A program made the translations under genes and the position numbers. A stretch of 11,733 nt of DNA, taken from a virus. The notes below the pieces were generated by a model. The model worked only from the letters and a program-made list of their open reading frames with translations, was not told where the DNA came from and ran no database searches. Below are positions 817-11,733 of this stretch, one piece after another. The first letter of the stretch is position 1, and each line of letters starts with the position of its first letter. Where the stretch lies: IMG/VR virus record IMGVR_UViG_3300045988_021489; one strand, written 5' to 3'.

Positions 817-1965
817 TTACTCAATATATACCCCGTCAGACAAAGCCGTGTATATCATTTCTTGTTCCTCTGTCAGCATTTCGGCGGTGTGTATGGGTGT
901 AACATCATCGAACACATTAAACCCTCTGAAATCGCCTAAAATGCCCGTTTGTCGGTCGTTATTACGTCCGTTGCTTGCGCTCTCGTACCACTTGCAATAA
1001 ATGTAAGGTTCTAAACCGTAATATAACATTTCGTTCCAATCATCGCCGCCCACGGTCTTAACTTGGGTACTTGGTGAAAGGTATATTATTTCGCTGCTTG
1101 GTTCTGTTTCCTCAACTTGAAATACAACGCCGTTGCAGGACAAAAGCGCAACCCCGTTGCCCGTTACCACGTTTATAACGTACTGCAAACCTATCGTTTT
1201 GCCTGCATAATCGGTATTGAGGTTTACAAACCCTGCAAACGGCAAAAAGATTTGTATTTCGCTTTCGTAGTCGGTGTTGTCCTCATTGTGCGCTGGTACT
1301 ACCGCCGTGCCGAAATCAAGCGTTATTTTGTCTTGCGCTGGCTGGTGGCAAGATACGCCCGTATTGTAGTTGCCGCATCGTATTACATCGGTGCTGCTTG
1401 CCCCTATGTTGGTGTAAACACGGAGTATCTTGTTCACGTATGCGCCCAAATCTATGTTTTCGTATATAGGTGCGCCCGTGCTGGGGTCTGTTCCCGTTTC
1501 CTTGAAAAACCGTTTGCCGCTAAACTCTGCCAACTCATCAAGCGTTACCAAATATACGTTTATTGCGCCGTACTGCTCGCCCACAACGGTAACGGGGTAC
1601 GCACTGCCAATAACTGCAAAATCGCTCCAATTAGTGTTTACTTGTATGCTTCCCGTTGCCTTCTTTTTATCGCTTGAAATCGTAAGGTCTTGCGTTTGAG
1701 GGAAGCCGCTTGCGTTCTGGTAATAGAATTGCGGTGTACTTTGTTCGGTGTCAAATTCTGTGCCATCGTTTGCCGTTAATGTAACATTTACCGTTTCCCC
1801 GTCTTTCACATATTGCGGCAAATCCTCGTTAGCGGTGCAATTTGATAGGTTTGTAGAAATTTCTAACACATCATCGTAACTACCCGTAAGCGTTACGGGC
1901 TTTGTCGGGTCTATGTCGGTAATGGTTAGCGTTGCTTGTTGGCTGTATTCCAAATCCTGCACCAC
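817..1965 (-). CDS. Tail knob (phi29 gp9-like), C-terminal segment preceded by an Ig-like repeat domain. Has no ATG start and is in frame with the upstream ORF across one TAA
   Basis: 382-codon ORF whose only candidate starts are GTG GTG at 1965-1960; the first internal Met is about codon 320. The C-terminal block FNVFDD...LTEEQEMIYTALSDGVYIE resembles the phi29 gp9 C-terminus (FNYVQT...DLQEIRTIFDNGITLW) as I recall it. The central FLPFAGFVNLN...GKTIGLQYVINVVTG block is typical of tail knob/tube proteins. Confidence 0.6.
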   Translation of the reverse strand: MVQDLEYSQQATLTITDIDPTKPVTLTGSYDDVLEISTNLSNCTANEDLPQYVKDGETVNVTLTANDGTEFDTEQSTPQFYYQNASGFPQTQDLTISSDKKKATGSIQVNTNWSDFAVIGSAYPVTVVGEQYGAINVYLVTLDELAEFSGKRFFKETGTDPSTGAPIYENIDLGAYVNKILRVYTNIGASSTDVIRCGNYNTGVSCHQPAQDKITLDFGTAVVPAHNEDNTDYESEIQIFLPFAGFVNLNTDYAGKTIGLQYVINVVTGNGVALLSCNGVVFQVEETEPSSEIIYLSPSTQVKTVGGDDWNEMLYYGLEPYIYCKWYESASNGRNNDRQTGILGDFRGFNVFDDVTPIHTAEMLTEEQEMIYTALSDGVYIE

Positions 1966-2010
1966 AAACGGCGTTTTGGTCGCTGTTCCTGCCTTGTTCG
2001 TGTAACTCGC

Positions 2011-2670
2011 TTAGAGGTCAAAGAAACGCACTTTGTTCGGGGTGTATTGCCCCGTAACGGTGAAAGTTGCCGTTTCCCCGTCAAACGTATGTTGTTCGGT
2101 TACGCCGCTGCCCGTTATGTTGTTCGTTACGTTAAGTTCGGGTGTTCCCTCGCTGGCTGTCGTACCCGTAAGCGTGAAACTCTCGCCCGTGTCGGCATCG
2201 TCATACTCCCAACTTGCCGTTTTACCGTCTGGCGAAATTGTCAAGTCCTGCGTATCGGGGTAGCCGTAACTGTCCGTAAACTCCACTTGCGCCGCCGTTA
2301 TCTTGTAACCCTCGTTTGCCGTTACTTGTATGCTCGCATCATAATAACCGCTACCTTTTGTTCCCGTTGCTGTCGTGTTCGGTATGTTGTTTATAACTTC
2401 CAAATCGTTTTCGCTTCGGGTGTTTCCCGTGATAGTTATTTCCGTGTCTGCATCGGTGTCGGACAACTCACCAAATGCCCAAACCTTTGCGCCGTTCATA
2501 TCCAAAACAACGCTTTTCGGGTATCCGCTTGTATTGGTATAAACCGCCTTAACATCGCCTACAAACAAATAACCGTCATTCGTTCTTACGTTTATATCCC
2601 AATAACCGCCGCTTGCGTTCCACTGGCTGTTATCATCGTGTGCGTTAGGTATATTTACAATTACTGCCAT
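2011..2670 (-). CDS. Tail protein segment with Ig-like/beta-sandwich repeat domains (possible receptor-binding insertion)
   Basis: 219-aa ORF with an ATG start, in the same frame as both neighbours. It contains SYGYPDTQDLTISPDGKTA, paralogous to ASGFPQTQDLTISSDKKKA in the next ORF. T/G/E-rich beta-strand-like repeats (VTANEGYKIT, FTLTGTT, FTVTGQ). Confidence 0.55.
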   Translation of the reverse strand: MAVIVNIPNAHDDNSQWNASGGYWDINVRTNDGYLFVGDVKAVYTNTSGYPKSVVLDMNGAKVWAFGELSDTDADTEITITGNTRSENDLEVINNIPNTTATGTKGSGYYDASIQVTANEGYKITAAQVEFTDSYGYPDTQDLTISPDGKTASWEYDDADTGESFTLTGTTASEGTPELNVTNNITGSGVTEQHTFDGETATFTVTGQYTPNKVRFFDL

Positions 2671-2676
2671 ACTCTT

Positions 2677-3129
2677 TTAATTTTCGGTTGTTCCTTTCAA
2701 AGTTACCATAATGATACCCCCGTTTTCATTCAAAAGCCCCGTTTCAGAAAACGGCACTTTCTCAAAATTCGGGGTGCGCTTGTAAACCGTATCACGGTTT
2801 GAAATATACGGGTCGGGGTTGTCGCTTTCAGATACACGCCCAGTTGCCTCCAAAATTTCGCTTTCGTAGGTTTTAAGCACATCAATACGCAATGCAAGTT
2901 CGTAGGCGTTGTTTCCCTCAAAACTTACCCTATCCACGAAATAATAACGCCCTAAATCGGGTATGTAACAATAATTGAAAGTCGGTCGGGGTTGCTTTCG
3001 TAGTGTTACGGTCGGGCGCAACACATCGAAAGTTTGCCGCAAATCGCCCTCAATCGCCGTAAACGTGCCTAACTGCTTGTTTACCGTGTTCGGGTGTCCG
3101 TTGTATGAATAAAAGTTTATCGTTGTCAT
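2677..3129 (-). CDS. Tail knob (phi29 gp9-like), N-terminal domain segment, 150 aa
   Basis: I place the start at ATG 3129 (MTTINFYSY). The ORF-track GTG at 3177 lies inside the terminator hairpin. The block NYCYIPDLGRYYFVDRVSFEGNNAYELALRIDVLKTY resembles the phi29 gp9 N-terminus ([42 protein letters not shown]) as I recall it. Confidence 0.6.
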   Translation of the reverse strand: MTTINFYSYNGHPNTVNKQLGTFTAIEGDLRQTFDVLRPTVTLRKQPRPTFNYCYIPDLGRYYFVDRVSFEGNNAYELALRIDVLKTYESEILEATGRVSESDNPDPYISNRDTVYKRTPNFEKVPFSETGLLNENGGIIMVTLKGTTEN

Positions 3130-3210: not shown

Positions 3211-4443
3211 TTACTCAATAAAGAATACTACAAAGTTTTCGTTTGTATCGTTGAAATACCCTGCATCAAACTTGTAATAGTTGTTGAAAAACTCTGCCTT
3301 TGCGTTGTAGTTCGTTGTTACCCGTCTGTCAAGATTGCAAACGCCCAACGCATCACGGTCGAACATTACGCCCAACACGCCCGTAATTTCAACATCTTTG
3401 CCGCCGCTTTCCTTAACCTTAATGTGTCCCGTGCTGGCGAAATCGTAGTTCTTTCCGCTGCCTTGCCAAAAAGGTACGGTTTCGGCTTGCGGCAAAAGCA
3501 CATCGCCACGGTTGAACGTGTCGGAATAAAGATAGGTTTGCGCTGCCTTTGCAAAGTCGGACAAAAGTACAACGTGTAACATATCTTTCGGCGTAAACCG
3601 TTCCTTGCCGCCAACATTGAACACGGTGGAAATGCTTTGCAGGCGGTCGGCATACGTCCCCATAACGTAAGACGCAAAGCGGATAAAATCGGGGTCGGTT
3701 ATCGCCTTTGCCGCTGTCAGTGCGTCAGGGTTCGGGGTCGGCTCGCCCTCTCCCGTTGCAGGTGTTGCAGGGAAATACTTGTCATTGTACAACTTCAAAA
3801 GGTTTACACAACGTGCCGTGCTTGCGCTGGAAAGGTCTGCCCCTGCCATATCACCTGCTGCCGTTGCTCCAAACGCTTGCGCATCAGCCAACACGGTTTC
3901 CGCAATCATGTTGTTAATTGTGCGCATAATCAAAGCGTCTGCCTTGATAGTCATTGACTTTTCAACGGCTGCATAAATCATCGAAATAAAGCCGTTGAGT
4001 TGTGCGGCGTTGCTGAAACTTTCCTTAACCTGTCTTTCGGTGATTGATACGGGCACTTCAAACGTAACCTTTGAGTTGAAAAACTTTGCGGTAACGGTCG
4101 GTTTGTGGAACACATCTTGCTTGTATTCTGTTCCGTCCTTCAAATCCCACGTGTCGTTTTCTTCTGCTTCTGGAACATCGGCACTTATCTTTTCCAATAC
4201 GCTACCAAACTCCCACGCATCCATTAAAACGCTCGGCACTTTGCCCGCATAAGGTCGGTTTACGAAAATCACCTTGCCGATATGGTTTACAAGTGATTTT
4301 ACGTAGTTGTCAACTGCATTTTGGTTAAACACTTCCGTGCCCAAATCCACAATGCCCGTTAAATCGTCCTGCACAATGTCAGTCTTGCCCAGCACTTCAC
4401 TTGAAACGCTGTTAATAATCTGGTAAATCTGTTTTACGTTCAT
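3211..4443 (-). CDS. Major capsid protein (HK97-fold type expected), 410 aa
   Basis: It is the largest head-module ORF and lies downstream of the portal and a scaffold-like ORF. It is followed by TAA..TAG..TAA and a strong terminator, an arrangement typical of abundant capsid genes. The N-terminal pattern (IYQIINSVSSEVLGKTDIV...LTGIVDLGTEVF...) resembles small-podovirus MCPs from memory. This is not verified by search. Confidence 0.75.
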   Translation of the reverse strand: MNVKQIYQIINSVSSEVLGKTDIVQDDLTGIVDLGTEVFNQNAVDNYVKSLVNHIGKVIFVNRPYAGKVPSVLMDAWEFGSVLEKISADVPEAEENDTWDLKDGTEYKQDVFHKPTVTAKFFNSKVTFEVPVSITERQVKESFSNAAQLNGFISMIYAAVEKSMTIKADALIMRTINNMIAETVLADAQAFGATAAGDMAGADLSSASTARCVNLLKLYNDKYFPATPATGEGEPTPNPDALTAAKAITDPDFIRFASYVMGTYADRLQSISTVFNVGGKERFTPKDMLHVVLLSDFAKAAQTYLYSDTFNRGDVLLPQAETVPFWQGSGKNYDFASTGHIKVKESGGKDVEITGVLGVMFDRDALGVCNLDRRVTTNYNAKAEFFNNYYKFDAGYFNDTNENFVVFFIE

Positions 4444-4464: not shown

Positions 4465-5037
4465 TTATTCGTAAATACTCGTTGTTAATTCTCTTACAAG
4501 TGCAAAGATAATGTTTTTTCTCCAATTATCACGCCTTAACTGCAATTCTTTTGCAATTTCACTTGAAATTGATTTGCTTGCGCCCGTTCCTTTGCTGGTT
4601 TCGGTTGTTTGGCGTTCCTCGGTGCGGTTTCTCTCATCGTTTGCGGTCTTTCGGTCGCTGTCTGAAAAATCGGTATCGTTAAACGCCTTGTTTGCGCCCG
4701 TTTCGGTGTTGTCCGTGCTTTCCTGCAAAGTAACCGTTTCCGTGCGTTCAATTTGCCCCGTTACGGGTGTCAGTACATCGTAATCGGCTAACATCGCCGC
4801 CGCTTCACGTTCCCAACCTTGCACGTTTACCGCAATCACCGCCGAAACAACATCTTTTGCGTTGTCCGCATTGATAGAGTTTACAACGGTCTTGCCGCCG
4901 TACATCAGTAAGGCGTAAGCGTCTAACTTGGTCGGGTCGGTATCGCCGAAAATAGCGGCGTACTCTGTCGGATATTCAGTCTTGAAAACGGTTGCGAATA
5001 TCCCGTTACCCGTTGTAAATAGTTCGCTGTATTTCAT
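4465..5037 (-). CDS. Hypothetical head-assembly protein, 190 aa (position suggests scaffolding protein)
   Basis: It lies between the portal and MCP genes, with its ATG overlapping the portal TGA (ATGA). The C-terminal half is charged with T/E/R-rich low complexity. I recognise no motif. Confidence 0.35.
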   Translation of the reverse strand: MKYSELFTTGNGIFATVFKTEYPTEYAAIFGDTDPTKLDAYALLMYGGKTVVNSINADNAKDVVSAVIAVNVQGWEREAAAMLADYDVLTPVTGQIERTETVTLQESTDNTETGANKAFNDTDFSDSDRKTANDERNRTEERQTTETSKGTGASKSISSEIAKELQLRRDNWRKNIIFALVRELTTSIYE

Positions 5038-6125
5038 TGCTTATCGTCTTTTGTTTCTGTTTCCTCTGTTTCCTCTGTTTCCTCTGTTTCGGTATCGTTA
5101 CCGTCCGTTTCCGTTTCCGTTTCTTTCGTTTCTTCTGTTTCCTCTGTTTCCGTGTCGTTTCCGTCTGTTTCGGTGTCGTTTCCGTCTGTTTCGGTTGTTT
5201 CCTCTGTCGGGTCGGGTTCGTCTGTCGGGTCGGGGTTTTCCTTTGCCGTTTCCAAATCAGCCGCCAAAGCGTTGTAATTATCCCTTTCCAAACCCCAACT
5301 TGAAGCAAGTTTAACCGAAATTTCGGTGTCAAACATCGCATTAATTTTCTCAACTGCATTTTGTCTTTCTTTTAGCATATTATCCACATACGGCAAAAGT
5401 ACATCTACATTCATACTTACCTCGCCCAAATTAAGGCGTTCACGCTTCATATTATAATTTGCGTTTAGCCCCAATTCGTTGTACATACTCGCTTTGTAGT
5501 ATTGTATCAGTTCAATAAGTTGTGTTATATACACGCTGTTTGTGGTCGGGGCTGTCTGCATATTTACGCCTTTGAAAAAAGCGTTTTCCCCGATAATTGA
5601 AAACTCGCCGTCTTGTATCTTGCGCAAAATCTCATCGGCACTCTGTTTCGTCTTGTCATCGCTGGCACTTATCAGCATTGTAATACGGGTCAAAATGCTT
5701 GCCGTGTTCAACGAAATAAGCCCGTCAGTATGCAAGACGGCATAACGCCCGATAAGCGGCAAAAGGCTTTCGCCGTTGCTGTCATTCTCAATCAAAACCC
5801 CGTCTTTCTGTATATCGTAGGTTTTGTTTAACTTTAATGCAGGGTTCGCCACGGTGTAAAGCGTTGCCCGTCCGTAAACATCGGGTTCGCCGCCTTTGCC
5901 GCCCGAAAGCGCATACAAAACCCCGTCCACGCTGGTAACAAAGGCGTTGCCCGTGGTCTGCAAAAGCCGCTCCAATTCCTTTTGCGGTATGCTGTCGGGC
6001 AAACCCTCATATTCAAACATACTTTGAGTTTTCGCCAACGTGTTCGCCATAAATTCGGTTACGGCGGTGTCTTTGTCCCTTACTTGTTGCTGGTACAACT
6101 TGTAAATGTTATCTTTCCTTTTCAT
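5034..6125 (-). CDS. Portal (connector) protein, phi29 gp10-like, with a roughly 70-aa acidic repeat tail
   Basis: FEYEGLPDSIP and NANYNMKRERLNLGEV resemble phi29 gp10 FEWENLPPTI and NANLEKKERMVTDEV as I recall them. Size and position fit a portal. Confidence 0.85.
   Translation of the reverse strand: MKRKDNIYKLYQQQVRDKDTAVTEFMANTLAKTQSMFEYEGLPDSIPQKELERLLQTTGNAFVTSVDGVLYALSGGKGGEPDVYGRATLYTVANPALKLNKTYDIQKDGVLIENDSNGESLLPLIGRYAVLHTDGLISLNTASILTRITMLISASDDKTKQSADEILRKIQDGEFSIIGENAFFKGVNMQTAPTTNSVYITQLIELIQYYKASMYNELGLNANYNMKRERLNLGEVSMNVDVLLPYVDNMLKERQNAVEKINAMFDTEISVKLASSWGLERDNYNALAADLETAKENPDPTDEPDPTEETTETDGNDTETDGNDTETEETEETKETETETDGNDTETEETEETEETETKDDKQ
5050..5240 (-). repeat. Tandem short repeats encoding the T/E/D-rich portal C-terminus
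   Basis: A perfect 21-bp tandem duplication lies at 5152-5172 and 5173-5193 (encodes TETDGND), with a diverged copy near 5091-5111. A 9-bp unit ctctgtttc repeats 3-4 times at about 5063-5090, and tctgtcgggtcggg occurs twice at about 5204-5236. Confidence 0.9.
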
Positions 6126-6409: not shown

Positions 6410-7540
6410 TCATTTAAGCGAAACAATGTTTGTCTTTGCGCTCGTAATTAAATAATTGCGTACTATTTCGCCTATTTCGTTATCTTGGTAGAAAACTTTG
6501 TCTATTGCGAAAAACCGTGCGACTTGTTGTTCCACGTAACTTGCCGTGCTTAACAACTTGCGTTTGTAGTTCGGTTTGCCGTTCATTTCCAAAGAATAAA
6601 TAAGGCTGTTTTCCTCATCTTTAATCGGTGTCGTTTTGGCGTGTATGTACGTGAAACATTCGTTGCCTACTTGTATAATGTTACCCTGCAAAACAACATC
6701 GTTAAACTTGATATAGTACACAAACAACACGTCTTGCGGCTTGTACTTACACGGCAAATGCGGATATACTGCAAGTTCCCACTTGCCGCCCGTAATCATC
6801 TGCAAATTTTGATTGTCGAAACAAAAATACTTGTTACTGGCTTTGTGTTGTACTATCGTGCTGCAATACTCCACCGCCACGATTGCGCCGTGTTCGCCAA
6901 AGCGGTATATATCTATCGTTCCCTGCTCCATAAACGGCACTTGCTTCAAACCCATTTCCGTAAAGTACGGGCAAAACTTGTTTACCGTGTTGCCCAACAT
7001 AAACACTTTGACATCGTTTCGCTGGCGTATTATCGTGCTTAACAAGTTCATAAATAACATAAACTCATCGGGCAAATAATACCGCCGTGTCAGAAACTCG
7101 TCAAATACTATCGTTGTAACATTCGGGTAACTGCTGCTTTTTTCGTGTTCCTGCTCTGAAAGGCAAAACCCGTAACAAAACGGGGTCGGGTCGGGTGTCC
7201 GCTTGTTTTTCTCTGCATCGTAGTAAGATAAAAACCACTTGTTCGACATATAGAACACTTCATTAAATTTGCCCTCTGTCAGTTCCTCAATAAGTCCGTT
7301 TGCCACGTGATTTGCAAACAGACTTTCGGCACGTTTGCCCCGTAAATCCTCACGCCAACGGCGTATATATGCCATTTGCTTGCCCGTCTTGATATAGTTT
7401 TCCAAACCATATTTTAAGGCGGCGTAAGTCTTGCCGTTTGACCGTTCGCCAAATATAACATTATAGTCGGCGTTCTTGCTTAAAATCGCTTTCAAGTCGT
7501 AAAATTTCGGCTTTTCTGTCTTTGTCTTTCTTGTTGTCAT
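6410..7540 (-). CDS. DNA packaging (encapsidation) ATPase, phi29 gp16-type
   Basis: Walker A is FGERSNGKTY. The Walker B block SSSYPNVTTIVFDEF closely matches phi29 gp16 SNAYPNVSTIVFDEF as I recall it. Also YIRRW vs YVRRY, and ML-GN-T-V vs CLSNAVSV. Confidence 0.93.
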   Translation of the reverse strand: MTTRKTKTEKPKFYDLKAILSKNADYNVIFGERSNGKTYAALKYGLENYIKTGKQMAYIRRWREDLRGKRAESLFANHVANGLIEELTEGKFNEVFYMSNKWFLSYYDAEKNKRTPDPTPFCYGFCLSEQEHEKSSSYPNVTTIVFDEFLTRRYYLPDEFMLFMNLLSTIIRQRNDVKVFMLGNTVNKFCPYFTEMGLKQVPFMEQGTIDIYRFGEHGAIVAVEYCSTIVQHKASNKYFCFDNQNLQMITGGKWELAVYPHLPCKYKPQDVLFVYYIKFNDVVLQGNIIQVGNECFTYIHAKTTPIKDEENSLIYSLEMNGKPNYKRKLLSTASYVEQQVARFFAIDKVFYQDNEIGEIVRNYLITSAKTNIVSLK

Positions 7541-7552
7541 ACTCTTATTATT

Positions 7553-9382
7553 TTAGTCCTTAAATTTAATTCCACGCAAATAATTTATGTACATAACCGA
7601 AAGGGAAAGGCTGTATCCGGTCGGCTCTAAATGTACGCCCGTGCGTTCGTTGTAATGCGCCGTGCTGCCTTTGTAGTCGGTTATTTCGCCTTGTATCTCG
7701 TAGTCTATGTACGTATGTATGTTTTTGCCCGTTGCTTGCGGCGGTATATCCAAATAGTTGGTAAACGCATCAAAGATACCGTTTTCGCCGTACTTTTCAA
7801 TAAGATACGGTATCGCCGCCTTTTTGTTCACTCCCGACACGGTTAAACTGAAATCGTATGCCCGTCCGCCTGCTTTTAGTGCGTTGGGTTCTTGCACCAT
7901 ATAGCGTTTAGCCCCCAAAGTCTTAAACCTTGTATATGTACCCTCGAAATCCCAAACGCCCAAAGTCTTTGTTATGCCTTTTATCGTTTGCGGCTCGCAA
8001 AGCGAAAACGGCAAACCGTGGTACTTGCAGGCTGCACGTAATTTCATTTGCACCTGCATATTATAAGCCTTGAAATACGCTTCGTGCGCTTTGCCGTTCA
8101 TTATTTTAATGCTGTCGGTGTCGCTGTATATGTAATCGTCTTTCGCTTCGTGTATGCCCGTGAAAAGGTTGCGCCGTGCGTATGCGGTTACGAAAATGCC
8201 CCACGGGTAAAACAAGAAACGGTTTTTGCTGGTGTTGTACTTGTATAAAAGTTCCTGCTTTTGTTCGGCTGTCATTGAGTTAATATCCCATTCGCCGTTA
8301 TATGTAAACTCATCACGCAAAGGGTTGGTAACACTCATACCGTAACAACTGTTTAACATTTCCTTGCTGTTAAGATATTCCACTTCTTTGCCCTCAACTC
8401 CTTTTAATTTCGTCTTGCTTTCGTACAAATGAAGGATAGATTTTACAAACGGGGTCGGCAAATAGTCTTTCTTGTAACAATACATTTCACCCACACGCAT
8501 ACTTTCCCACGTATAAAAGTTTTTGATTATATTAAAATCCACGTCCGTAATTGTCAGCGCAATTTTTGAAGCCGCCACAATACGCCCGTTATTTTCGCAC
8601 GGGTTTTCTTTCACAAAACATTTGCTTGCGCTTATCGGGTTGTCTTGCGTTTCGCTGGCAAATATGTTGGTAAACTCAATATCAAACACGCAACAATACT
8701 TTGATATTAAAAACTCAAATTGCGCCATACTCTTAACCGTGATTGCAACGCCTTGCGACATCGGGTATTTTTCCGCTATCATTACATACGGGTAACTGCT
8801 TGTAAAGTCGTAACTATCCACGTTGTACATTATTTCGTCTGTATATTCGGCGATGGCGTGTGTAAAACCGCCTGCAAACGCACGTTGCAGCATATTAAAT
8901 TCATTCATACCCGTAATTTGTAATTCCTGCATCAAGTTCACGTAATCCCAATTTGGTACGGTCTTTCCTGCATCGCTTTTTTCACGCAAACAATGCGCAC
9001 GGCAATACTTGCGCACAAACCCCGTCTTTGTTATCGGTATGTGCGTTATCCCCTTGCTTTCCTCTATACGTTCCTGTATGTAGCACATCACTACTTTAAT
9101 ATCGTTTATGCAATAGTGTATTTCCGCATCAGTAAGCGGCGTTTCGCTGTGCCTTATTTGCTGGTAGTCCAAATCGCCAACGGCTTTTGCACACTTGTAT
9201 TTCATAAGTTGTTCGCCCAACTTTGCAAGCGAATAACCCGAAAGCAAGTAACTGCATCTAAACTCAATGTTGCCCGTTGTTATTGCGTAAATCGGTTTGC
9301 GCAAATCAATACTGAAAACCCGTTGCCACTCAAACCACTTGCGCAAAAACTGAAATTCGTATGAAAGGTTATGCACATACAC
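7553..9382 (-). CDS. Family-B protein-primed DNA polymerase, C-terminal 609 codons (ExoII to the end). No ATG start; in frame with 9395-9763 across one TAA
   Basis: ExoII is YVHNLSYEFQFL and ExoIII is HYCINDIKVV. Motif A is YDFTSSYPYV, motif B is KEMLNSCYGMS, motif C is IYSDTDSIKI, and the KxY motif is GAKRYMV. The ORF-track start is GTG. Confidence 0.95.
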   Translation of the reverse strand: MYVHNLSYEFQFLRKWFEWQRVFSIDLRKPIYAITTGNIEFRCSYLLSGYSLAKLGEQLMKYKCAKAVGDLDYQQIRHSETPLTDAEIHYCINDIKVVMCYIQERIEESKGITHIPITKTGFVRKYCRAHCLREKSDAGKTVPNWDYVNLMQELQITGMNEFNMLQRAFAGGFTHAIAEYTDEIMYNVDSYDFTSSYPYVMIAEKYPMSQGVAITVKSMAQFEFLISKYCCVFDIEFTNIFASETQDNPISASKCFVKENPCENNGRIVAASKIALTITDVDFNIIKNFYTWESMRVGEMYCYKKDYLPTPFVKSILHLYESKTKLKGVEGKEVEYLNSKEMLNSCYGMSVTNPLRDEFTYNGEWDINSMTAEQKQELLYKYNTSKNRFLFYPWGIFVTAYARRNLFTGIHEAKDDYIYSDTDSIKIMNGKAHEAYFKAYNMQVQMKLRAACKYHGLPFSLCEPQTIKGITKTLGVWDFEGTYTRFKTLGAKRYMVQEPNALKAGGRAYDFSLTVSGVNKKAAIPYLIEKYGENGIFDAFTNYLDIPPQATGKNIHTYIDYEIQGEITDYKGSTAHYNERTGVHLEPTGYSLSLSVMYINYLRGIKFKD

Positions 9383-9394
9383 AATAAGGCGTAA

Positions 9395-9763
9395 TTAGTC
9401 ATTCAGCCCTAAAACCTCGCTTACGGTCTGCATCATCGTGACAAACTCGCCCCACGTGCGCCCCATTATCGTATATCCGTTTATGCCAAACTGCCAAACG
9501 TACATTATTGCGGCTTTCTCTAATTTCGCCTTGCGCCCGTTCCCGTCCTGCATACGCTGCATTTGCTCGTATGTGTACGCCCGTCCGTCCGTATCACGGT
9601 AAAAACTTGTTGTTTCAATATCAAAGGCGCACGGGATATTGTAAAACCTTTCGCCCTTGCTGTTTCCGATAATGTTCTTTTCGTTTACGGCACGTTGCAA
9701 CACGCTTGCAATTTCGGTCGGGCTGTTTATTCTTTCTTGTAACTCAAAAGGTATTTTTTTCAT
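9395..9763 (-). CDS. Family-B protein-primed DNA polymerase, N-terminal 122 codons (ExoI only)
   Basis: The ExoI motif is CAFDIETTS (D48, E50). The ATG overlaps the upstream TGA (ATGA). It ends ...SEVLGLND-TAA, immediately followed in frame by LRLIVYVHNL. Confidence 0.9.
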   Translation of the reverse strand: MKKIPFELQERINSPTEIASVLQRAVNEKNIIGNSKGERFYNIPCAFDIETTSFYRDTDGRAYTYEQMQRMQDGNGRKAKLEKAAIMYVWQFGINGYTIMGRTWGEFVTMMQTVSEVLGLND

Positions 9764-11459: not shown

Positions 11460-11681
11460 GTTGTGTTCCACGTGAAACAATTTATTTTGTGCATCGGTGT
11501 GGCAGTGTTCCACGTGAAACAATTTCACGGGCGCACACGCATAACAAAAACCGTGCCAAAGTCGGGCGCAATGTGTTAAATTTTGGTAATTGCGACCCAT
11601 AGCAAAAAGCGTGCCACAAAGTGTTTGCAAATGTTAAAAGTGCGTTGGGAAACGTTAAATAGGGGTCAGTAGCGTACCTTT
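11460..11681. repeat. Right inverted terminal repeat, 222 bp
   Basis: Exact reverse complement of 53-274, abutting the adapter at 11682. Confidence 0.97.
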
Positions 11682-11733
11682 AGATCGGAAGAGCGGTTCA
11701 GCAGGAATGCCGAGACCGATATCGTATGCCGTC
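11682..11733. other. Illumina adapter sequence (artefact), reverse complement of 1-52
   Basis: Reads AGATCGGAAGAGCGGTTCAGCAGGAATGCCGAGACCGATATCGTATGCCGTC. Confidence 0.9.

Follow-up and report, generated by a model that had tools for sequence, protein, structure and literature searches.

How is the tail knob of a phi29-like phage encoded when its reading frame is broken by two stop codons? The question is raised by IMG/VR virus record IMGVR_UViG_3300045988_021489, a contig of 11,733 nucleotides (nt) that was analyzed at its full length and is called the window here. On its minus strand, positions 3129 to 817 form a single frame of 771 codons in which TAA occurs only at 2677-2679 (junction 1) and 2011-2013 (junction 2), with the translation reading ...TLKGTTEN-stop-KSMAVIVN... 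and ...NKVRFFDL-stop-ASYTNKAG..., respectively. The original prediction had described three same-frame open reading frames (ORFs) separated by TAA codons only, and had proposed that programmed readthrough joins them into a knob protein of about 770 amino acids (aa). The layout was confirmed, including the 45 nt that are open in frame between the second TAA and a GTG at 1965 and the lack of a methionine in the last segment until near its C-terminus. The proposed readthrough was not, as the first stop is a conserved gene end and the second is private to this contig. Instead, we consider it very probable that the knob is encoded by two genes, tailA and tailB, that the first TAA is the stop codon of tailA, and that the second TAA and a further one in the DNA polymerase gene are private nonsense codons of a defective or minor variant or of an erroneous consensus, without any recoding. 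The elements concerned are listed below.

2677-3129, minus strand: tailA, the small knob gene, 150 aa, from the ATG at 3129 to the TAA at 2677-2679
2677-2679, minus strand: junction 1 TAA, conserved genuine stop of tailA, TAA in 88 of 91 aligned relatives
2668-2670, minus strand: ATG start of tailB, 6 nt past the tailA stop, MAV... start conserved in relatives
817-2670, minus strand: tailB, the large ("major") knob gene, 617 codons plus stop, interrupted at codon 220; a single open frame of about 440-619 aa in relatives
2161-2547, minus strand: immunoglobulin (Ig)-like repeat unit 1 (tailB residues 42-170), from self-alignment
2011-2013, minus strand: junction 2 TAA, private nonsense codon (Lys codon AAA to TAA), AAA in 42 of 44 alignable relatives
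1600-2010, minus strand: Ig-like repeat unit 2 (tailB residues 221-357), from self-alignment
820-1596, minus strand: conserved C-terminal knob domain, 259 aa, defined on 890 representative proteins
9395-9397, minus strand: polymerase TAA, private nonsense codon (AAA to TAA); relatives have AAA (108 of 110) or AAG (2 of 110)

The first TAA is the ordinary stop codon of tailA

The two junctions and the polymerase site were aligned to 111 related loci, of which 91, 44 and 110, respectively, were alignable. At junction 1 the stop codon is conserved, and the tailB start codon that follows it is preceded by the leader AAGAGTATG, which recurs ahead of the gene for the packaging ATPase. The three of 91 relatives without a TAA at this position have shifted stops or spacers; they were inspected as candidates for natural tailA-tailB fusions, and none of them is a fusion. 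Among the best 120 of 169 tailA homologues, none was fused to a large protein. The comparison with relatives that the original prediction had called for thus yielded no uninterrupted ORF spanning tailA and tailB; the relatives have two genes, and tailB is one frame in 103 of 103.

That both genes share a frame in the window had a prior chance of 1 in 3, and this relation is not conserved. In the clade of the window, tailA and tailB are in frame in 85 of 106 loci, with a spacer of 6-9 nt, while the other 21 are out of frame or overlapping, with spacers of 5 nt, 2 nt or other lengths, or with TGA stops and overlaps of 14 nt. In a second clade, whose tailA is 44% identical, the frames differ in 70 of 80 loci, where the genes are 2 nt apart or overlap in TAATG. 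Over both clades, the two genes are out of frame in 91 of 187 loci. The change of frame can be followed in two very close relatives (L100 and L054), in which a 1-nt deletion has left a 5-nt spacer that is otherwise the same, and in the cultured relative Phanie the genes gp9 and gp10 overlap by 1 nt. The first TAA is therefore tailA's ordinary stop, translation of tailB begins 6 nt further on from an ATG of its own, and the shared frame is incidental.

These data bear directly on programmed readthrough, by which an occasional tailA-tailB fusion of about 770 aa would set the ratio of short tube to full knob, in the manner of the A1 readthrough protein of phage Qbeta. The idea draws on the single frame of all three segments, on the match of tailA and tailB to opposite ends of a knob protein made as a single chain in phi29, and on the in-frame majority with short spacers among close relatives. 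However, frame and spacer vary between relatives, with out-of-frame or overlapping genes in both clades and some TGA stops, and readthrough therefore cannot be a conserved route to the knob protein. A stop that is read through by design should be conserved together with its frame: at junction 1 the stop is conserved and the frame is not, and at junction 2 the stop is absent in relatives. The segment behind such a stop should also be without a start of its own. Behind junction 1, however, tailB begins at a conserved ATG and has a typical leader, and if the segment behind junction 2 has no start, the sole reason is that it lies within tailB. In addition, the second TAA occurs in no relative, and an equal private TAA is found in the polymerase gene, where setting a ratio would make no sense. 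In bacteria, UAA terminates efficiently when the next base is A, G or U, which speaks against leakage as well. The likeness to Qbeta A1 is formal, in that an in-frame stop lies between structural modules. The UGA of Qbeta is leaky, conserved and required, unlike the window's first stop, behind which tailB has an ATG of its own that in relatives frequently lies in another frame, and unlike the second, which occurs in one contig. Altogether, we give programmed readthrough almost no credence.

TailA corresponds to the N-terminal domain of phi29 gp9

The resemblance of the first ORF to the N-terminal domain of phi29 gp9, which the original prediction had pointed out, was borne out by profile and structure comparisons. 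A profile of tailA matched the knob of Streptococcus phage C1 (PDB entry 4EO2) over residues 48-128 with E=7.7e-4. With hhalign, tailA aligned to phi29 gp9 at E of about 1e-3 and to an alignment of seven members of the gp9 family at E=2.3e-4, covering residues 56-120 of gp9 over the two comparisons and 59-120 in the one with the family. The AlphaFold2 model of TailA has a predicted local distance difference test score (pLDDT) of >82 for residues 1-100, and in Foldseek it matched 5FB4, 5FB5, 4EO2 and siphophage neck proteins with E of about 0.01-0.03 and a probability near 1. The Pfam model PF16838 (Caud_tail_N) stayed below threshold for the window's TailA, and 1 of 19 tailA homologues matched it, at E=0.026. 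Among the 120 listed homologues, lengths range from 85 to 193 aa and identities go down to 43%, with the same ...MVTLKG... C-terminus. By tblastn, tailA found the small knob genes of DU_PP_III (E=9e-11), Astrid (2e-10) and Phanie (6e-8); in Phanie the product is annotated as 'putative tail knob protein'. TailA is the counterpart of the N-terminal tube-like domain of phi29 gp9.

TailB combines Ig-like repeats with a conserved C-terminal domain

In TailB, Ig-like repeats are N-terminal and the conserved domain is C-terminal. The paralogous Ig-like repeat that had been noticed on both sides of the second TAA is real, since self-alignment of residues 42-170 with 221-357 gave a score of 114, compared to 42 +/- 8 for shuffled sequences. 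The C-terminal 259-290 aa recur in the 890 representative proteins (291-1030 aa long), where they are always C-terminal and follow a variable N-terminal part. With this domain as query, tblastn detected the large knob proteins of DU_PP_III (2e-7) and of phages of the Astrid group (5e-5 to 4e-4).

A resemblance of the last ORF to the C-terminus of gp9 had also been proposed. In hhalign, TailB and gp9 share 42 collinear columns at their extreme C-termini (E=0.09), a weak match, and Foldseek gave no match to gp9. None of 20 tailB homologues matched the Pfam model PF20934 (phi29_gp9_C), and searches of Pfam and PHROG with the three knob pieces gave no match. For relatives, a similarity of the tailB-type C-terminal part to the gp9 C-terminus by HHpred is reported in PMC11476376. 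Of the notion that gp9 homology is split by the stops, it holds that the knob is divided between genes, but the second TAA falls inside one gene, tailB.

In close genomes, the length of TailB changes in steps of about 85-95 aa (440, 525 and 619 aa). These steps are whole Ig-like domains that were gained or lost within one species-level population, and such turnover suggests rapid variation of host range or adhesion. Gene calls on contigs from ENA and Logan gave a polymerase of 736 aa, a small tail gene of 150 or 163 aa and a large one of 528 or 619 aa.

Two proteins, each translated on its own, would thus make up the knob: TailA (150 aa) and TailB (617 aa), the latter with predicted lateral Ig-like domains ahead of the conserved knob domain at its C-terminus.

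The TAA codons in tailB and in the DNA polymerase gene are private to one contig

The second TAA coincides with the start of a repeat unit, where D-V-K-AVYTN in the first unit corresponds to D-L-stop-ASYTN in the second. It is absent from every alignable relative. Because it is private, it is a nonsense substitution and not a recoding signal, and its being in frame follows by necessity, because a single-base change within one gene leaves the frame as it was. A third in-frame TAA, which was missing from the original prediction, interrupts the polymerase gene at 9395-9397. With the ExoI motif (FDIETT) on one side and ExoII (HNLSYEF) on the other, it splits the gene into ORFs of 122 and 609 aa. 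As this is a second private AAA-to-TAA change, the phenomenon is not specific to the tail. The 24 nt on both sides of each private TAA are identical in 18 relatives for tailB and in 29 for the polymerase, so that a single A-to-T exchange makes the difference.

For the relatives, interruptions were judged by testing whether the frame is open, and a codon-level tiling was discarded, since alignments broken into multiple high-scoring segment pairs produced spurious stops, as for the intact tailB of L092. By the open-frame test, tailB is uninterrupted in all 103 relatives and the polymerase gene in 110 of 110, as well as in relatives down to 33% identity. Fifteen apparent TAA codons within tailB of relatives were rejected as artefacts in which the junction 1 stop had been aligned into shorter tailB variants. 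The 27-mers bearing either TAA were absent from the IMG/VR and JGI metagenome contigs that were scanned, and the truncated products, including the 219-aa tailB piece, occur on a single contig of 11,733 nt only.

Compared to about 110 relatives, the window has 11 private single-nucleotide polymorphisms (SNPs), of which 4 are synonymous, 5 missense and 2 nonsense. A/T transversions make up 6 of these 11, as opposed to about 11% of the private SNPs of relatives (binomial P of about 4e-4 by our own calculation). Apart from ttT>Ag at the two nonsense sites, no shared sequence motif was found around the private substitutions. The pattern looks unselected, which fits either errors in the consensus or a minor or defective variant that is kept by complementation and was assembled from an abundant and heterogeneous population. 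Sporadic interruptions are seen elsewhere: L060 has a CAA-to-TAA change at codon 66 of the putative terminal-protein gene (a homologue of orf217), and in the ENA contig L115 the polymerase was called in three pieces of 299, 160 and 261 aa. Since these two also carry interruptions, defective or erroneous copies occur at a low rate in the assemblies of this phage group. We infer that the two private stops are non-functional, and the contig most probably represents either a defective or minor variant that exists alongside intact genomes of an abundant phage population, or an error of the assembly consensus.

Observations at odds with a two-gene knob carrying chance nonsense codons

Several observations do not sit easily with this explanation. 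A viable phage would not be expected to carry nonsense codons in two essential genes of a genome that is ordinary in other respects: in the 8-kb core it has 9 private SNPs, at or below the median of the relatives (12), its inverted terminal repeats (ITRs) are perfect, and there are no frameshifts. Across 9 genes in about 110 relatives, one comparable interruption was found (orf217 of L060), in addition to a few truncations of the connector tail. Both changes are from AAA to TAA and would be silent under an ochre suppressor inserting Lys. Finally, the link between the C-termini of TailB and gp9 was non-significant, with no match by PDB profile, Foldseek or PF20934; since our own tests did not reach significance, it rests on the published HHpred result for relatives.

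The two nonsense codons and their common origin from AAA would be accounted for if the private TAAs were real and decoded, either as Lys by an ochre-suppressor tRNA-Lys of the host or by leaky termination, so that the variant would be viable in a suppressing host only. Tolerated stops would make two nonsense codons in essential genes of a normal, complete genome easier to grasp, and the common AAA-to-TAA change would be explained. However, AAA is a common codon, so that chance alone would produce two hits from it with only slightly reduced likelihood. Neither the window nor any of 200 related loci yielded a tRNA gene. TAA terminates 11 of the 16 genes of this genome, including the capsid gene (the others end in TGA, three of them in ATGA overlaps), and these stops would be read through too. 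The variant is on one contig only, and relatives have no recurrent in-frame TAA at Lys codons. Ochre suppression found no positive support and is in our opinion very improbable; if true, it would be the first hint of it in a gut phage-host pair. In that case natural ochre suppression would be the new element, and the contig would be a suppressor-dependent variant resembling a conditional-lethal mutant.

The in-frame stops also recall gut phages with altered genetic codes, in which TAG is reassigned to Gln or TGA to Trp. Such phages have many conserved in-frame stops, avoid the reassigned codon as terminator and often carry suppressor tRNAs. The window is like them in that essential genes, among them the one for the polymerase, contain in-frame stops that are all of one type, but unlike them it has two private sites, uses TAA as its main terminator and has no tRNA. 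Reassignment of TAA is not known in phages. For these reasons (main terminator, private sites, no tRNA found), genome-wide recoding of TAA was rejected.

Alternatively, translation could terminate at the private stops and reinitiate at GTG codons, at 1965 in tailB and at 9382 in the polymerase gene, which would give a shortened knob protein and a two-piece polymerase. The GTGs are close to the stops (45 nt downstream in tailB, 12 nt in the polymerase gene), and short natural tailB homologues of 291-356 aa, with few or no Ig-like domains, resemble the 382-aa C-terminal fragment, which makes reinitiation conceivable for tailB. On the other hand, no relative has such a split, and the GTGs lack the start context of the other genes, an A-rich leader followed by ATG. 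The tailB fragment would be without the conserved MAV... N-terminus, and the polymerase fragment would have lost its first 122 aa together with the ExoI motif, which is implausible for a polymerase. Reinitiation is thus exceedingly improbable, and two genes with private, non-functional nonsense codons in tailB and in the polymerase gene are the explanation that we retain.

The two-gene knob is shared with Astrithrvirus-like phages

A knob made from two genes with variable Ig-like domains has been described for phi29-like phages of Gram-negative hosts, namely Astrid, Phanie, DU_PP_III and the faecal metagenome-assembled genome (MAG) 2692_55609 (Evseev et al. 2024, PMC11476376; Pourcel et al., cited there). 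According to Evseev et al., the small protein resembles the N-terminal part of gp9, the large protein combines variable lateral Ig-like domains with a gp9-like C-terminal part, and AlphaFold3 models show a hexamer of heterodimers (PMC11476376).

The window agrees with these Astrithrvirus-like phages in its genome of about 11-12 kb with ITRs, in a gp9-N-like protein of about 150 aa and in a large Ig-like protein with a conserved C-terminal part. Its gene order is that of Phanie: ATPase, small ORF, connector, an ORF of about 190 aa, major capsid protein (MCP), small knob gene and large knob gene. Moreover, tailA and tailB are directly homologous in sequence to the knob proteins of Astrid, Phanie and DU_PP_III. 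It differs from them in that identities are about 25-35%, with no nucleotide match in the phage database, and in the nonsense codon by which its own large knob gene is interrupted. Compared to phi29 gp9 and C1 gp12 (5FB4, 5FB5, 5FEI, 4EO2), TailA matches the N-terminal domain by profile and predicted fold, and the extreme C-terminus of TailB is collinear with gp9 by the weak hhalign match. However, gp9 and gp12 are single chains of about 590 aa, whereas the window has two genes with inserted Ig-like domains, and neither PF16838 nor PF20934 reaches threshold for its proteins. Taken together, the knob of the window is the published two-gene architecture, here in a new gut member of the Astrithrvirus-like relatives of phi29.

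The striking three-ORF knob hence resolves into this published architecture plus sporadic nonsense substitutions in one contig. For annotation, two genes, tailA and tailB, should be given, and tailB and the polymerase gene should be flagged as interrupted or pseudogene-like. With the window, a very abundant gut lineage of hundreds of near-identical 11-12-kb genomes falls in the Astrithrvirus-like group.

Phanie has an amidase gene after the large knob gene, whereas none was recognised downstream of tailB in the window. Positions 1-816 contain no recognisable endolysin or holin gene after tailB; the sole ORF there is a plus-strand gene of 120 aa (387-749), which has 117 aa in relatives. To lyse its host, the phage may depend on a helper as Phanie does; at least this one member of the Astrithrvirus-like group requires the tail of a helper phage.

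Genome organization and relatives

Outside the knob region, the following features were recognised.

1-274: left inverted terminal repeat, 100% complementary to 11460-11733
3211-4443, minus strand: phi29-type MCP, with Pfam and PHROG matches
5034-6125, minus strand: gp10-type connector, with Pfam and PHROG matches
6410-7540, minus strand: gp16-type packaging ATPase, with Pfam and PHROG matches
7553-9763, minus strand: protein-primed family B DNA polymerase (PolB), 736 codons, interrupted here, PF03175 and phrog_1907
11460-11733: right inverted terminal repeat, complement of 1-274

All major genes are on the minus strand. The perfect inverted repeats of 274 nt at both ends indicate that the linear genome is complete with its 11,733 nt. 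It carries the core of phi29-like phages, with a protein-primed PolB, ATPase, connector, MCP and ITRs, and its size is within their range of about 11-14 kb. The window thus represents a small phi29-like podophage of the human gut, with its linear genome of 11.7 kb in full.

Hundreds of close relatives of 11-12 kb are present in IMG/VR, and further ones were found in ENA, in Logan and in MAG bins of GTDB. In the phage database, megablast found no match to the whole window, and look-ups of the exact products of six window proteins (the two truncated products, the connector, orf118, the MCP and the 382-aa tailB fragment P0121) retrieved no record.

The host could not be read from the genome bins, which pointed to inconsistent taxa (Prevotella sp., Candidatus Scatosoma, Christensenellaceae, Lachnospiraceae and others). 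In the GTDB MAG contigs L209-L219, whole phage genomes were binned into unrelated taxa. Mis-binning of free phage contigs is the probable cause, and bin-based host assignment is unreliable here. The gene starts have A-rich leaders without Shine-Dalgarno motifs, which would fit a host from the Bacteroidota, and the gut lineage is possibly associated with Bacteroidales.

The 190-aa ORF at 4465-5037 (minus strand), between the connector and MCP genes, had no family match. Its position corresponds to Phanie_0070 and to the 'shortened lower collar' of this group in Evseev et al. (PMC11476376). At its C-terminus (5034-5300, minus strand), the connector has a long tail that is acidic and repetitive, TETDGNDTETEETEE..., and that differs in length between relatives. 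This tail seems dispensable, because some relatives (L006, L099 and L108) have a premature stop there. Basic ORFs of 117 and 128 aa in other frames are mirror artefacts of the repeat in this tail.

The ITRs of 274 nt are far longer than those of phi29, which have 6 nt. Each contains two copies of the 21-nt element AAATTGTTTCACGTGGAACAC (209-229 and 251-271 in the left copy) with the palindrome CACGTG inside, and this element could be a candidate recognition element for the replication origin or the terminal protein.

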